Shown one piece after another: positions 37,966-43,299 of a stretch of 43,299 nt of DNA (its first letter is position 1; each line of letters opens with the position of its first letter). Both the position numbers and the translations under genes were made by a program. The notes under the pieces are model-generated. The model saw only the letters and a list, made by a program, of their open reading frames with translations. It made no database searches and was not told the origin of the DNA. The stretch lies in the NCBI GenBank assembly GCA_045533895.1, contig JAZSIT010000147.1:1-43299 (forward strand). The letters are read 5' to 3'. This DNA comes from Eubacteriales bacterium (lineage in GTDB: Bacteria; Bacillota; Clostridia; Oscillospirales; CAG-382).

Positions 37966-38343
37966 GTGAATGAACAAACTGTAATACGGCGCGGAGATAT
38001 ATATTATGCGGACCTTTCACCGGTGGTAGGTTCGGAACAAGGGGGAATAAGACCCGTCCTGATCGTACAAAACGACGTGGGTAACCGACACAGCCCCACG
38101 GTAATTGCCGCCGCAATAACATCACAAACAGGAAAAGCGAGACTTCCCACACATATAGAAGTAACCGGAAGCAGTATAAAAATGGGCAGCGAAAACGGTT
38201 GCGGTCTGGCGAAAAACTCCATAATTTTACTGGAACAAATACGTACTCTGGACAAAAAGCGACTCAAGGACAAAATGGGGCATCTTGACGAAGACACCAT
38301 GCGGCAGGTCAACGAAGCGCTTAACGTAAGCTTTGGATTATAA
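37966..38343 (+). CDS. mazF: PemK/MazF family endoribonuclease (NdoA-like), no adjacent antitoxin
   Basis: [51 protein letters not shown]. Confidence 0.96.
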
Positions 38344-38661: not shown

Positions 38662-40299
38662 ATGAGCTCATATTACACCAATAAACCGATTGAAAAAGCA
38701 CTTCCCGTTTATGGGGAAACGGTATCTGAAGAAAGAAAAAATCTGCTTTTGGGCGTACCCATACACGCTATTGAAGAAAAAAAGTTTTTTGCCGTTAAAG
38801 GCGAGCGTGTCCACATGAACTATGATACAGACTGCCTCTTGCTTACAGACGGTGAGTACAGTCCCAACAACGATTACCGCAACAAAGAGTGGTTTCATAT
38901 CCACGGCGGAGGCGGGCGTATAATCACCTTCAAGCTTCCCTATCTTTGCGCGGTAGACGGATTTTCATTTAACACCTGCCGTCACGACGAGGTGGGAGTA
39001 AGATCGCCCATATACGTAAAAATGCGTGTTTCCGCAGACGGAGAAAACTTTGAGACCGTTTACGAAAACAACGACACACGCTCTTCCCGCGATCTGCATA
39101 TCCATAAAATAACCGGAAAATTTAATAAGGTAAAAGCGCTGTACGTTCAATTGGCACTTGAGGTCACACACCACGTTTATATCGATGAATTGGAGATTTT
39201 CGGCTGTACCGACCTTAAAAACGCAAGAGAACCCGTAAACGACGGCAAGTGTGTTTTCAACGATTCCCCCTCCCCCGACGAAATAAACGAATATCCCCCC
39301 GAGGACATACTGGGTGCGAAGAACATCGTGCTTGCATACAACTACCGCCCCGTTGACGAAAATAAGGGACTGCTTACCTATGAAAATTTCCTGCCCATGA
39401 CGGCGTATCTTGACAAGGACGGAAACATTACCGACACTTTTATGGACGGATTTTTGTTTTTGCCCGATGTTTCCTTTGAGTTTTCCCCCTTTGGAAAGCG
39501 TTCTGAGGGCTGGCGCGACTATATGGACAGCATCTTTGCGCCGGACAAAAACTTAAACGCCCTTGAAAAAGCAGCTTATGATGTCGGAAACAAATTAAAT
39601 ATACCCGACTATAAGGTAAAGGTATTCTTCCCTATTCCTTACACCTACACGGGACCTGAAGAATTCGGTATGGTTAACGGAGAGAATCTGGTATTCGATA
39701 ACCCCGAAAGCCGCAAAAAAGCTATAAAATGGCTGATAGATTCACTTATCGAGCGGTATAACGGCGGCAATTACCCTCACACCGAGCTTGAAGGCTTCTA
39801 CTGGTTTGAGGAAGCGCTGAATGTTACAGATAAATACGAAAAAGAAATAGTGCGTTTTGCCTGCGATTACTTAAAGGAAAAAGGGCTTAAATGCTTCTGG
39901 ATACCCTACTTCTGCGCACTTGGTTACGAAGAATGGCAAAGCTACGGCTTTACCGCCGCGTGCATGCAACCCAATTATATGTTTGATTACTCCATTCACA
40001 AAGACAGACTGTACGAAACCGCAAAGCAGGCGCACCGTATGGGTATGTGTGTGGAATTGGAGGTATGGAAGATATACGAGGATGAAAAGGGTAATATAGA
40101 CGATGACAGCCGCGAAAATATAAGAAGATTTATTGAATATCTTGAAGCAGGCAAAGAAACCGGATATATGAAAACAGCCAAAATGTACTACCAAGGCAGT
40201 GCCCACGGATGTATTATTACAAGGGGCTGGAACAGCAAAAACGAATATTACAGAGAAATGTATGACAAGGCTTATCTTTTTGCAAAGAAAAAGCTGTGA
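38662..40299 (+). CDS. DUF4855-domain protein with N-terminal discoidin/F5-8-like beta-sandwich
   Basis: DTFMDGFLFLP, LEGFYWFEE, WIPYF, QPNY.F, G..VELE, YYQG motifs; N-domain LTDG..., VSADGENF, VYIDELEIFG. Confidence 0.8.
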   Translation: MSSYYTNKPIEKALPVYGETVSEERKNLLLGVPIHAIEEKKFFAVKGERVHMNYDTDCLLLTDGEYSPNNDYRNKEWFHIHGGGGRIITFKLPYLCAVDGFSFNTCRHDEVGVRSPIYVKMRVSADGENFETVYENNDTRSSRDLHIHKITGKFNKVKALYVQLALEVTHHVYIDELEIFGCTDLKNAREPVNDGKCVFNDSPSPDEINEYPPEDILGAKNIVLAYNYRPVDENKGLLTYENFLPMTAYLDKDGNITDTFMDGFLFLPDVSFEFSPFGKRSEGWRDYMDSIFAPDKNLNALEKAAYDVGNKLNIPDYKVKVFFPIPYTYTGPEEFGMVNGENLVFDNPESRKKAIKWLIDSLIERYNGGNYPHTELEGFYWFEEALNVTDKYEKEIVRFACDYLKEKGLKCFWIPYFCALGYEEWQSYGFTAACMQPNYMFDYSIHKDRLYETAKQAHRMGMCVELEVWKIYEDEKGNIDDDSRENIRRFIEYLEAGKETGYMKTAKMYYQGSAHGCIITRGWNSKNEYYREMYDKAYLFAKKKL

Positions 40300-40377
40300 A
40301 AAATTTTTTTCATTTTCTTGTAACCTTTTTGTGTTTTGAAAGGTATTACATATGAAACCATGAAAGGAGACCCCATT

Positions 40378-40884
40378 ATGAAAGGTAAAAGCAAGTGTAA
40401 AATATTAAAAGATATCCGCCGCAAGATAGCGCAGGATAACGATATTGAATTTATAACCACCGAATGCAAGCACAAGGGAGATTGTCTCGGCACCTGCCCC
40501 AAGTGCGAGGCAGAGGTGCGCTATCTTGAAGAACAGCTTAAAAAGCGCAAAGCTGCGGGAAAGCAGGTTGCCGTTGCTGGAATTGCCGCCGCCTTTGTAG
40601 TGGGAGGCACATCCTGCGATATACTTGAAACATTGATTCCCATACAGGGAGATATGGCTCCCCCGCCCGAGGAATCCGTACAGGAAATAGTAAACGGCGA
40701 AATGCCGTCTGAAAGCTCTGAATATGTGACTATGGGAATCTTGCTTCCGCCCGAGGAAAGCGACATTTCCGAGGAAGAAAGAGACGAAAATTCCGAGGAA
40801 TACGCAGAAATGGGAGAAGTGCCCGAAGAATCCTGGGTGGAACTTATGGGCGACGTGGCGGAAGACTTTTCCGATGGAAAGTAA
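40378..40884 (+). CDS. Cys-rich N-domain / hydrophobic segment / acidic Gly-motif repeat protein (168 aa)
   Basis: AAAGGAGA RBS before ATG 40378; C7,C30,C36,C40,C43; internal signal-like stretch ending GGTSC; five x-G-[DEI]-hydrophobic motifs. Confidence 0.85.
   Translation: MKGKSKCKILKDIRRKIAQDNDIEFITTECKHKGDCLGTCPKCEAEVRYLEEQLKKRKAAGKQVAVAGIAAAFVVGGTSCDILETLIPIQGDMAPPPEESVQEIVNGEMPSESSEYVTMGILLPPEESDISEEERDENSEEYAEMGEVPEESWVELMGDVAEDFSDGK
40636..40866 (+). repeat. Degenerate intragenic peptide repeats centred on Gly
   Basis: IQGDMAPPPEES, VNGEMPSESS, TMGILLPPEES, EMGEVPEES, LMGDVAED; DNA echoes CCGCCCGAGGAA twice and GCCCGAAGAATCC. Confidence 0.7.
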
Positions 40885-41509
40885 AGCGATGACAGCGCCT
40901 GTAATAACTTTTTCAAGACTGCGTATGCAAACCGATGGAAAAGGAGTAACTACCCTTGTGTGCTTTCACGGCTGTCCTCTGCGGTGCGCTTGGTGTATAA
41001 ACCCTTTTTCCTTCGCACCGGACACAAAGCGCACGGATATGACACCGAAAGAACTTTACGACAAGGTGAAGGTTGATAATTTATATTTTCTTGCCACGGG
41101 AGGCGGTGTGACATTCGGCGGTGGCGAGCCCCTTTTGTATGCCGATTTTATAAAAGAATTCCGCAGTATCTGCGGAAACAAATGGCATTTGTGCGCGGAG
41201 ACATCACTTAACGTACCTGCCGAGAACGTAAAGCTTGCTGCAGAATGTATTGATATGTTCTACGTTGACTGCAAGGACACAAACCACGAGATATATTCGC
41301 GCTACACCGGCAAGGACAACCGCAATATGCTTGAAAATCTGAAAATGCTGGTTGACCTTGTGGGCGCGGAGAGAATAACCGTCCGTCTGCCTCTGATTCC
41401 ACAATACAACACGGAAGAGGACAGACAAAAAAGCAGATATCTGCTTGCGAAAATGGGAATTACCCAGTTCGATGAATTTACATACAAAATTAAGAGCACT
41501 TCAAGTTGA
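40874..41509 (+). CDS. Radical SAM enzyme, glycyl-radical activating enzyme (PflA-like) family
   Basis: DGKGVTTLVCFHGCPLRCAWCINP, GGGVTFGGGEPLL, ETS, D.K, VRLPLIP.YN; overlaps upstream gene by 11 nt. Confidence 0.9.
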   Translation: MESKAMTAPVITFSRLRMQTDGKGVTTLVCFHGCPLRCAWCINPFSFAPDTKRTDMTPKELYDKVKVDNLYFLATGGGVTFGGGEPLLYADFIKEFRSICGNKWHLCAETSLNVPAENVKLAAECIDMFYVDCKDTNHEIYSRYTGKDNRNMLENLKMLVDLVGAERITVRLPLIPQYNTEEDRQKSRYLLAKMGITQFDEFTYKIKSTSS

Positions 41510-41523
41510 AGTGCTCTTTTTTA
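41492..41523. terminator. Terminator hairpin between convergent radical SAM and catalase genes
   Basis: AAGAGCACTTCA-AGT-TGAAGTGCTCTT-TTTT, overlapping the radical SAM stop codon. Confidence 0.85.
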
Positions 41524-41532
41524 TCGGGGTGA

Positions 41533-42198
41533 TTAACCGTTAAAAGACGGCTTTTCAGTTTCTCCGGTGGCAAAAGAATTGGGTCCGGGATTGGAGAGGG
41601 AGAAGTACATTTTTGCGGCTTTTGTAGTGCCGAAATCGCGGTTTGAGCCCGTTTCCTGCACCTTGTTGAAGGCATCGCGGAACATTTGGTTGTGCGCTTC
41701 CTCGCGGTTGAGCAGGAAGTCTATGGTCTCGCGCACCTTTTTATCGTCGATCTGGCGGTAGAGATATTCATACACAACCTTTGCGCGCTGTTCCGAGGCA
41801 ATATTGCTGAGTAAATCGGCGCACAAATCGCCTGTGACGGTTACGTAGTCGCCCGTCCATGAATAGCCCGAAGCATTTATAAGACCGGGGTTAAGACCTA
41901 AAAGCACGTGGGACTGAATCTCACCGCAGGGTACATTTGCGGCATCAACATCGTGTCCGTTTAATAGGTTGATAGTCTGTGCTACCATCTCCATATGACT
42001 AAGTTCCTCGGCGGCAATGTCAAGAAATAAATCTTTAATCTCAGGGTCTTTGATTCTAAAACTTTGGGACATATACTGCATAGCCGCCTTAAGCTCACCG
42101 TTACCGCCGCCAAGCTGTTCCTGTAAAAGTGCCGCATACTGCGGATTTGGTTTCTCCACCGCTACAGGATGAAATAGCATCTTTTCGTGTTTAAACAT
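41533..42198 (-). CDS. Manganese catalase family protein
   Basis: LQEQLGG.NGELKAAMQY, DIAAEELSHMEM, NIASEQRAKVVYE.L, FLLNREEAH. Confidence 0.94.
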   Translation of the reverse strand: MFKHEKMLFHPVAVEKPNPQYAALLQEQLGGGNGELKAAMQYMSQSFRIKDPEIKDLFLDIAAEELSHMEMVAQTINLLNGHDVDAANVPCGEIQSHVLLGLNPGLINASGYSWTGDYVTVTGDLCADLLSNIASEQRAKVVYEYLYRQIDDKKVRETIDFLLNREEAHNQMFRDAFNKVQETGSNRDFGTTKAAKMYFSLSNPGPNSFATGETEKPSFNG

Positions 42199-42881: not shown

Positions 42882-43299
42882 ATGAAAGACGAATGTTTAA
42901 TTTGCGGAGCACCGCTTACATATTTAGAAAACGAAACGCAAATGGAATGTGCCCTTTGTCATAAAAAAGAAAATAGCAAGACTGCTTGTGAAAAGGGACA
43001 TTATGTTTGTAACGATTGCCACACAAAAGGAATGGATAGCATTATTGGGCTTTGCCTTGTCGAAACTTCAAAGAACCCGATAGAAATTATCCAAAAACTA
43101 ATGGCTCAACCGTTTTGCCATATGCACGGGCCCGAGCATCATATTATGGTGGGTGCGGCACTACTGACTGCATATAAGAACGCAGGCGGTAATATTGATT
43201 TACCGAAAGCCTTGGTGGAAATGCAATCGCGAGGCAAACAAGTTCCCGGCGGAGCTTGCGGTTTTTGGGGCGCTTGCGGTGCAGGTATAAGTGCAGGTA
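42882..43299 (+). CDS. Cys/His-rich DUF5714-like protein (truncated by window end)
   Basis: MKDECLICGAPL...CALC...CEKGHYVCNDCH...MHGPEHH...PGGACGFWGACGAGIS; GAGGG RBS. Confidence 0.8.
   Translation, partial: MKDECLICGAPLTYLENETQMECALCHKKENSKTACEKGHYVCNDCHTKGMDSIIGLCLVETSKNPIEIIQKLMAQPFCHMHGPEHHIMVGAALLTAYKNAGGNIDLPKALVEMQSRGKQVPGGACGFWGACGAGISAG

Follow-up and report, generated by a model that had tools for sequence, protein, structure and literature searches.

Organization of the Locus

The window analyzed here is positions 1–43,299 of contig JAZSIT010000147.1 (contig C94 of the source genome), which comes from an Eubacteriales bacterium whose genome of 2.1 Mb in 200 contigs is 97.6% complete. 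This report concerns two genes on its forward strand, which encode a 168-residue protein, referred to here as the partner, and a 211-residue enzyme of the radical S-adenosylmethionine (SAM) type with the fold of PflA, the activating enzyme of pyruvate formate-lyase (PFL). The partner begins with a Cys-rich domain of about 60 residues, the head, and it is this head, together with a membrane helix, that is inherited with the enzyme in two phyla. The pair is single-copy in the source genome and has the following features.

40363–40369, forward strand: Shine-Dalgarno-like AAAGGAG, 8 nucleotides 5′ of the ATG at 40378 (sequence reading)
40378–40884, forward strand: partner gene, 168 residues, with head, membrane helix, lipobox-like Cys, and acidic tail (open reading frame scan)
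40378–40560, forward strand: Cys-rich head, residues 1–61 (helix 3–20, Cys/Gly loop 21–40, helix 41–59)
40561–40617, forward strand: hydrophobic helix, residues 62–79, ending in the lipobox-like GTS-C80 (sequence reading)
40618–40881, forward strand: acidic tail, residues 81–168, with five Gly-centered motifs at G91, G107, G120, G146, and G158
40874–41509, forward strand: gene for the compact PflA-fold radical SAM enzyme, 211 residues (Pfam and NCBIfam profiles, AlphaFold2 model)
40934–40951, forward strand: DGKGVT loop, enzyme residues 21–26, aligned to DGPGIR of PflA
40973–40996, forward strand: cluster motif CPLRCAWC, C34-x3-C38-x2-C41, invariant in 75 sequences
41492–41518, no strand assigned: hairpin terminator with a 12-bp stem and a 3-nucleotide loop, then TTTTAT, the T-run being on the forward strand

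The reading frame of the partner spans 40336–40884 on the forward strand, and its internal ATG at 40378 gives the 168-residue product. This start is favored over the TTG at 40336 because AAAGGAG is found at 40363–40369. The partner and enzyme genes overlap by 11 nucleotides (40874–40884). The hairpin at 41492–41518 lies directly 3′ of the enzyme gene and also faces a convergent gene at 41533–42198. Five Cys of the partner fall within residues 1–43, the hydrophobic stretch covers residues 62–79, and the tail of 88 residues contains 28 Asp or Glu and 2 Lys or Arg. The first-pass annotation had described a two-gene unit with an 11-nucleotide overlap and its own terminator, in which the first product has a Cys-rich head, a hydrophobic segment, and an acidic tail; this description holds in each of its parts.

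A Compact Enzyme of the PflA Type

The enzyme was read from its sequence to carry the cluster motif C34-x3-C38-x2-C41, the loop DGKGVT at residues 21–26, and FGGGEP. Pfam detects only Radical_SAM (66.5 bits) and Fer4_12. TIGR02494 (glycyl-radical enzyme activating protein) scores highest among the NCBIfam models, with 139.6 bits where the cut-off is 174.35, and this match is split into two stretches that skip the ferredoxin insert. The scores for the PflA model TIGR02493 (98.3 bits, cut-off 231.75) and for the NrdG2 model (48.7 bits, cut-off 131.15) are lower, so that the enzyme falls below every curated activase cut-off in NCBIfam. The SPASM maturase models of NCBIfam give weak, sub-threshold matches only. 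The AlphaFold2 model of the enzyme has a predicted local distance difference test score (pLDDT) of 92.6, and its best fold match is 3cb8_A, E. coli PflA with its peptide substrate (TM score 0.81, E = 1e-14), with QueE next. The best sequence match in the PDB is also PflA (3c8f, E = 7.7e-26). Profiles, alignment, and fold search together establish a radical SAM core, the CX3CX2C motif, the GGE motif for SAM binding, and a PflA-like fold.

In the alignment of the enzyme family (A2, 75 sequences), the residues D21, G22, G24, the three cluster Cys, N43, FGGG, E109, and D132-x-K134 are kept, and T26 and T27 are at least 90% conserved. The family has lost the Arg of the DGxGxR loop of PflA, because Thr occupies that position in at least 90% of the 75 members. 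The name and role of this loop reportedly come from the structural work on PflA. A compact PflA-type enzyme with the loop DGKGVT had been proposed from the letters alone, and the profile, fold, and alignment results bear this out. Relatives in public databases are named "pyruvate formate lyase activating enzyme" or "radical SAM protein"; 7809 of the 7999 candidates scored are related at E ≤ 1e-30, a count that includes ordinary activases.

Head and Membrane Helix of the Partner

The partner matches no family in Pfam or NCBIfam. Among proteins of 92–294 residues, 2944 relatives were found at E ≤ 1e-3, none of them with a Pfam domain or an informative name, and the public annotations of the family are "hypothetical", "energy transducer TonB", and "radical SAM protein". 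The partner cluster used below holds 106 open reading frames, of which 102 carry the head by pattern; of the four left out, one was shortened by start calling, one spells the pattern differently, and two are TonB_C fragments that lack a head. Residues 1–61 are nearly invariant across phyla in these 102 proteins, and G3, K4, C7, L10, I13, R14, I17, A18, N21, C30, G34, C36, G38, T39, C40, P41, C43, E44, E46, and G61 are identical in all of them. When 1.84 billion representative sequences were searched with the head profile, 2907 clusters matched at E ≤ 0.001, and the stricter limit of E ≤ 1e-30 left 599. The head starts at residue 1–5 in almost all of the 150 best representatives, and since these proteins are 99–514 residues long, the partners are proteins rather than peptides.

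The AlphaFold2 model of the head (mean pLDDT 69.5) consists of a helix at residues 3–20, a 20-residue Cys/Gly loop, and a helix at residues 41–59. No relative was found in the PDB by fold at E ≤ 0.001, and the best E value of the head profile against PDB sequences was 0.45. A search of the protein atlas with the head returned unnamed clusters only, below 0.9, as did the same search with the N-terminal domain of variant B (see below).

Lys or Arg occupies 5 of the 11 residues that precede the hydrophobic stretch. The head would be cytoplasmic and the remainder exported, given these five positive residues before the helix and the acidic tail after it; to judge from the sequence, head and helix resemble a signal peptide or signal anchor of unusual length. 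C80 is found in 87 of the 102 relatives, and the core of a PROSITE-type lipobox pattern follows the helix in 84, placing this Cys at about residue 80 behind a 60-residue domain. Another 13 of the 102 end the helix with ...EAQ(T/A) instead, which resembles a signal peptidase I site. The combination of a Cys-rich domain and a helix also brought to mind an anti-sigma factor with a zinc finger; this candidate was rejected, since there is no sigma factor or other conserved neighbor and no match to zf-HC2.

Gly-Centered Motifs and Variable Downstream Domains

The short motifs of the tail were counted in the 87 of 102 tails that remained after removal of near duplicates, and the expected values were taken from composition-preserving shuffles. 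MGD was seen 33 times against 2.5 expected, LMG 27 against 1.6, GDM 27 against 2.8, and MGE 27 against 3.6. Overall, the motif is in roughly tenfold excess over the shuffled sequences. The looser pattern G[DE][IVMLPA] is found in 95 of the 102 partners, with a median of three copies. The usual context is acidic-x-x-[LTV]-[EMDQ]-G-[ED]-[IVMPL]-[PAV]-P-E-E, and the first copy usually begins 10–14 residues past Cys80. Their enrichment and their spread in the partners make the Gly-centered motifs a conserved trait of the family in both phyla.

The region after the helix is variable. It is an acidic tail in Clostridia; in Bacteroidales it is TonB_C (for example L042, L085, and L070, the last from Bacteroides faecis), CarbopepD_reg_2 (L046), or a region of no known family. 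Ten partners were scanned for domains, and TonB_C was over its cut-off in three and under it in one, CarbopepD_reg_2 was found in one, and the other five gave nothing. Among proteins of 295–2000 residues, 706 carry the head at E ≤ 1e-5; the 120 best of these match PF13715, PF03544, or nothing, and never Radical_SAM. In 77 loci the number of head-bearing genes per single enzyme gene was one in 58, two in 17, four in one, and five in one, so that 19 loci have two to five. The coupling of the enzyme to a repeat protein with Gly motifs, as first proposed, therefore stands in part: the pairing is conserved and the motif is real, but the part that is inherited with the enzyme is the head and helix, and the tail can be replaced by TonB_C, CarboxypepD_reg-like, or other domains.

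Several observations on these paralogues stand apart. CarboxypepD_reg-type paralogues lie beside TonB_C paralogues in the same operon at L050 (1654–2607), L057 (5992–6927), L072 (7165–8094), and similar loci; the ...ALLGEVVV... past their domain seems to us similar to the N-terminal extension and TonB box of SusC-like transporters. On a Segatella copri plasmid (L126, NZ_CP137558.1, 3130–5618), two head-bearing genes and an enzyme gene, named in RefSeq as two "energy transducer TonB" genes and a "radical SAM protein", lie beside a relaxase, MobC, and a transposase; the module can thus be carried by a plasmid. Head-like sequences with 76% and 53% identity over residues 1–54 are also present in MT838070.1 and MT837469.1, unannotated fecal contigs deposited as "Bacteriophage sp.", at three places in one of the records.

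Conservation of the Pairing

The pairing was approached from both genes. From the partner side, a scan with one genome per species gave at least 600 pattern matches, at least 516 of which encode a relative, and the best 80 loci were fetched. Their sources are Clostridia (Oscillospiraceae, Lachnospiraceae), Bacteroidales (Bacteroides, Muribaculaceae, Prevotella), and Selenomonadaceae. Bacteroidales species with the module include Duncaniella muris and Segatella copri. By tblastn, the enzyme adjoins the partner on the same strand in 76 of the 80, a number that includes L047, where only the first 26 enzyme residues precede the end of the contig. Contig ends explain the four misses: in L037 the contig stops 140 bases past the partner match, and L069, L071, and L081, whose upstream sequence is shorter than 960 bases, belong to a group in which the enzyme is upstream. 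When the open reading frames of 81 sources were clustered, the enzyme and the partner were the only conserved neighbors, and the next real family occurred in 14 sources.

From the enzyme side, a search with the A2 profile covered 301 genomes of the class and gave a match at E ≤ 1e-20 in 228 of them. The scores break sharply, with 10 genomes at 149 bits or more and the rest at 131 bits or less. The head profile (A3) independently matched in 10 of 300 scored genomes of the class, and each of these 10 has a match to the enzyme profile on the same strand, less than 400 bases away. Nine genomes are common to the two sets. The two that differ are G127, where all that is present is a fragment of the enzyme at the first base of a contig, and G081, in which the head adjoins a truncated enzyme (115 bits). 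At the latter site (L095, G081:C8, 1121–2032), a 147-residue reading frame is followed by one of 90 residues that ends in a helix-less head; the enzyme is seemingly split or truncated, and L095 may be a decayed fusion of the kind described below. Genetic coupling of the enzyme and its head-bearing partner is, on these results, very nearly certain.

Separation from Glycyl Radical Enzyme Activases

By a profile search of the contigs of the source genome, the window encodes no glycyl radical enzyme. The genome has a single Gly_radical match, the PFL on contig C33, and its NrdD is on C144. Each has an activase of its own: a PflA directly downstream of PFL on C33 scores 258.2 bits (cut-off 231.75), and an NrdG2 on C193 scores 208.8 bits (cut-off 131.15). 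The enzyme studied here is about 33% identical to this PflA. No glycyl radical enzyme is among the conserved neighbors of the pair in the 81 sources.

In a quick maximum-likelihood tree of 97 rows, all 81 head-associated enzymes lie on one side of a branch with a Shimodaira–Hasegawa-like approximate likelihood ratio (SH-aLRT) support of 95, and 5 PflA, 10 other activase-like genes, and NrdG lie on the other. The absence of a PFL, NrdD, or other glycyl radical enzyme gene from the window, which had been noted at the outset, is confirmed. The tests suggested at that stage, of whether this subclade pairs with the Cys-rich protein rather than with glycyl radical enzymes and is distinct from activases that serve such an enzyme encoded elsewhere, both came out in favor of a separate, dedicated pair.

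A bona fide PflA is found 3–5 kilobases upstream of the pair in 4 of the 80 loci, all from Clostridia (L016, 3098–3817; L028, 730–1530; L038, 1291–2007; L053, 3418–4140). Those of L016 and L038 score 242.6 and 235.2 bits (cut-off 231.75), and those of L028 and L053 were judged by similarity only.

Variant Architectures and the Predicted Complex

Two other arrangements of head and enzyme were found. In variant B (L091 and L092, from two genomes that share a genus), the enzyme gene is preceded by one for a protein of 333–347 residues, with a cytoplasmic N-terminal domain of no known family, the head at the C-terminus, and no membrane helix. In variant C, enzyme and head are fused in one protein of 302–315 residues that has no helix; it occurs in two genomes (L093, L094) and two metagenome contigs (L099, L100), and its loop is DGPGVR or DGTGVR, with the Arg kept. 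In the tree, variant B falls within the main head-associated clade and variant C is sister to it. The residues C7, C30, G34, C36, G38, T39, C40, C43, and E46 are kept in all variants; D35 is not. In the order to which genome G249 belongs, 1 of 12 genomes has a fusion, namely G249 itself, and a metagenome scan for fusions gave 27 loci, of which two are full-length.

Directly downstream of the fusion, L093 and L094 encode a small protein that bears a lipoprotein signal peptide of the ordinary kind and a single M/V-G-hydrophobic motif, and L100 encodes a 404-residue protein with GEEMGLP near its start. In L099 no open reading frame of at least 45 residues follows the fusion on that strand before position 1598. 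Neither Pfam nor NCBIfam has a match for the N-terminal domain of variant B, the fusion-adjacent small lipoproteins, or the 404-residue protein of L100.

The fusions suggest that head and enzyme bind each other. The complex predicted for the enzyme with head residues 1–62 scores 0.47, against 0.00 for the best of three controls, which lends weak support to such binding. A score of 0.47 lies in a range where wrong passes outnumber right ones unless the pairing is likely beforehand. In the calibration, 58 of 80 solved complexes and 2 of 110 mismatched pairs attained the mark, and scores of 0.60 or less comprise 7 of those 80 solved complexes and both passing mismatched pairs. The runs agree in at least 86% of contacts, and the pLDDT of the partner is at least 74.

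Proposed Function and Alternatives

The scheme that we tentatively prefer, at somewhat short of an even chance, is that the head is a leader-like docking module within an extended signal peptide, that the enzyme abstracts hydrogen at the Gly motifs of the tail before export, and that the head is then removed. We infer the binding of head and enzyme, the role of the partner as substrate, the modified residue, the fate of the radical, export, and cleavage. In outline, a radical SAM enzyme of the PflA clade would act on, or with, proteins that bear the conserved 60-residue Cys-rich head. The head would recruit the enzyme to the newly made partner in the cytoplasm, where the enzyme, by the chemistry of its family, would cleave SAM and abstract a backbone C-alpha hydrogen. 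The likeliest site would be the Gly within the repeated motif hydrophobic-x-G-[D/E]-hydrophobic-P, whose repeats begin about 11 residues past the helix. The partner would then be exported, and the head cut off at the lipobox or the AXA-like site.

The head behaves like a leader in several respects: it is conserved, it is N-terminal on diverse proteins, one enzyme has several copies of it, and the neighboring protein can do without it when the enzyme itself carries it. Hydrogen abstraction at the tail glycines is favored because such a leader-like head is combined with an enzyme that keeps the PflA scaffold for taking hydrogen from a backbone Gly. A fuller version of this scheme is more doubtful: a protein-maturation system in which a folded, Cys-rich leader recruits a minimal PflA-type enzyme that makes C-alpha radicals at the repeated Gly motifs of pre-export proteins, giving cross-linked, cleaved, or altered lipoproteins or multi-core lipopeptides. 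The module would be plasmid-borne in places and could be attached to TonB_C or TonB-box-like domains.

Several results weigh against the leader-like scheme. Pfam detects in the enzyme no RiPP recognition element (RRE; RiPP, a peptide made on ribosomes and modified after translation), no SPASM/twitch, and no other known peptide-binding or auxiliary domain. The loose pattern is absent from 7 of the 102 head-bearing proteins and occurs at most once in the CarboxypepD_reg-type paralogues; the motif could be a mere unit of an acidic, Pro-rich spacer. Under the position rule of PROSITE PS51257, the Cys of a lipoprotein lies within about the first 35 residues. C80 is outside this usual range for lipoprotein signal peptides, which makes cleavage of the head a guess. 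The low score of the predicted complex and the several long branches of the quick tree count on the same side. The fusion and variant B fit a head that is a domain or a substrate in its own right at least as well.

It is possible, though we consider it distinctly less probable than the leader-like scheme, that the head is itself the substrate. Hydrogen would then be taken from G34 or G38, or from a neighboring Cys, in the Cys-rich loop, giving a cytoplasmic domain that carries a radical or redox function, a membrane-tethered relative of the glycyl radical domain, and the exported part would set its place or target. No element is more conserved than the head, and no other is found in every case; nine of its invariant positions persist across all three architectures, including fusions that have neither helix nor tail. 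The model has these residues in the exposed loop of 20 residues that joins the two helices. For activases of this family, the target is a Gly in the loop of a folded domain, and PflA with its peptide (3cb8) is the top fold match; the complex prediction, weak support as it is, was made with the head alone. The loop, however, is unlike the RVxG[FWY] glycine site of glycyl radical enzymes, and five Cys that include a CPxC knuckle suggest a site for metal rather than for a radical. A domain of 60 residues also has no substrate pocket for radical catalysis, and a head that is the substrate leaves unexplained why the tail motif is conserved and why there are multiple paralogues that differ in their exported domains.

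Another alternative we regard as unlikely: the head would be an accessory domain that binds Zn or Fe and serves in trans for docking, electron input, or tethering, in place of a ferredoxin-like insert, and the substrate would be another protein or a small molecule. The enzyme–head fusions of L093, L094, L099, and L100 act as Rosetta-stone evidence for such a role. The five invariant Cys, including C36-x3-C40-P-x-C43, also speak for it, as does an enzyme without the ferredoxin insert, which its two-stretch match to TIGR02494 indicates. According to a 2026 review, most activases carry a ferredoxin-like insert, but PflA and NrdG work without such a domain. An accessory domain would also not be expected on two to five different exported proteins per operon or before a cleavable, signal-like helix, and no other conserved neighbor offers itself as the substrate.

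The remaining explanation, an ordinary spare activase for the PFL or NrdD of the genome beside an incidental neighbor, is prompted by the public names of the relatives and the PflA genes 3–5 kilobases upstream in four loci, but it is already contradicted by the scores under all curated activase cut-offs, the activases that PFL and NrdD have of their own, a pairing kept in two phyla and seen from both directions, the separate clade of the enzyme, and the replaced Arg of DGxGxR, and we give it almost no weight.

Other Genes of the Window

The convergent gene at 41533–42198 on the reverse strand, which shares the hairpin at 41492–41518, is manganese-catalase-like (NF052557, 141.5 bits, below the cut-off of 350) and is not among the conserved neighbors of the pair. 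Beyond it, a frame on the forward strand that leaves the window at its edge (42882–43298) encodes a Cys-rich protein, residues 1–134 of which match the MbdU model (metal-binding double selenoprotein) at 95.3 bits, with a cut-off of 600. Upstream, a forward-strand gene at 38662–40299 encodes a protein of 545 residues with no NCBIfam match, and the same family is found upstream of the pair in 7 of 81 sources. The start of the 125-residue frame at 37966–38343, also on the forward strand, looks to us like that of a putative MazF/PemK-type toxin.

In the one RNA run listed, 0.09 of the sequence words were present, and alignment gave only three short pieces of 90–95% likeness. These continue into unlike sequence and are for that reason ascribed to relatives rather than to the source organism. 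A second sequencing run, of unspecified kind, gave a 3037-base contig that spans the whole stretch of the pair with 20 differences.

Significance

To our knowledge, PflA-type enzymes have one job, which is to equip a glycyl radical enzyme with its radical. In the present case, an entire clade of the PflA type has a different, dedicated protein partner. The scale is considerable, with the head in 2907 representative clusters and a partner family for which neither Pfam nor NCBIfam has a model. The pairing is common in gut anaerobes and probably represents a new way of modifying exported proteins. If the enzyme does modify exported proteins, the chemistry of the smallest radical SAM scaffold would be widened, and the head would be a new kind of leader, located inside a signal peptide. 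The modification would also reach the TonB-related proteins of Bacteroidales, which are dominant in gut nutrient uptake.

Comparison with Known Systems

Full-text searches of the literature found no description of the head or of the enzyme–head pairing. The running text of a paper on the 11 TonB proteins of Bacteroides thetaiotaomicron does not mention the head. Many partners from Bacteroidales resemble the TonB-family proteins of Bacteroidota in that they have a TonB_C domain behind the helix and bear the name "energy transducer TonB", but the partner of the window has no TonB_C. A canonical TonB needs its helix, whereas here the lipobox-like Cys that follows the helix would separate the domain from it.

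PflA acts on a glycine of a protein backbone. Like E. coli PflA (3c8f, 3cb8), the enzyme consists of the radical SAM core only, without a ferredoxin insert, and has the N-terminal CX3CX2C, the GGE motif, and the D-x-K strand. It differs from PflA in being about 35 residues shorter at the C-terminus (211 vs 245 residues), in its DGxGVT loop in place of DGxGxR, and in adjoining, in the loci examined, a head-bearing protein and never a glycyl radical enzyme. The closest parallel for a small protein as the substrate of a PflA-type enzyme, which is what we propose here, is GrcA/YfiD, the autonomous glycyl radical cofactor, with PflA. Unlike GrcA/YfiD, the head has no Pfam or NCBIfam match to the glycyl radical domain, and it is membrane-tethered and Cys-rich.

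The organization of the genes is similar to that of the radical SAM maturases of RiPPs (sactipeptide, ranthipeptide, and epimerase systems), where the enzyme gene abuts one or several substrate-like genes. As in those systems, the N-terminal part of the partner is conserved, the C-terminal part is variable with repeated short motifs, and there are several paralogues per enzyme. In contrast to those maturases, the enzyme has no RRE or SPASM/twitch, the "leader" is a folded, Cys-rich domain of 60 residues with a membrane helix behind it, and the "core" can be a whole domain such as TonB_C. The module lacks defining properties of both kinds of system, namely the curated score, loop Arg, and cognate glycyl radical enzyme of PflA and the RRE or SPASM domain of RiPP systems. 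By analogy, it may work like PflA on a protein substrate and be organized like a radical SAM RiPP system.

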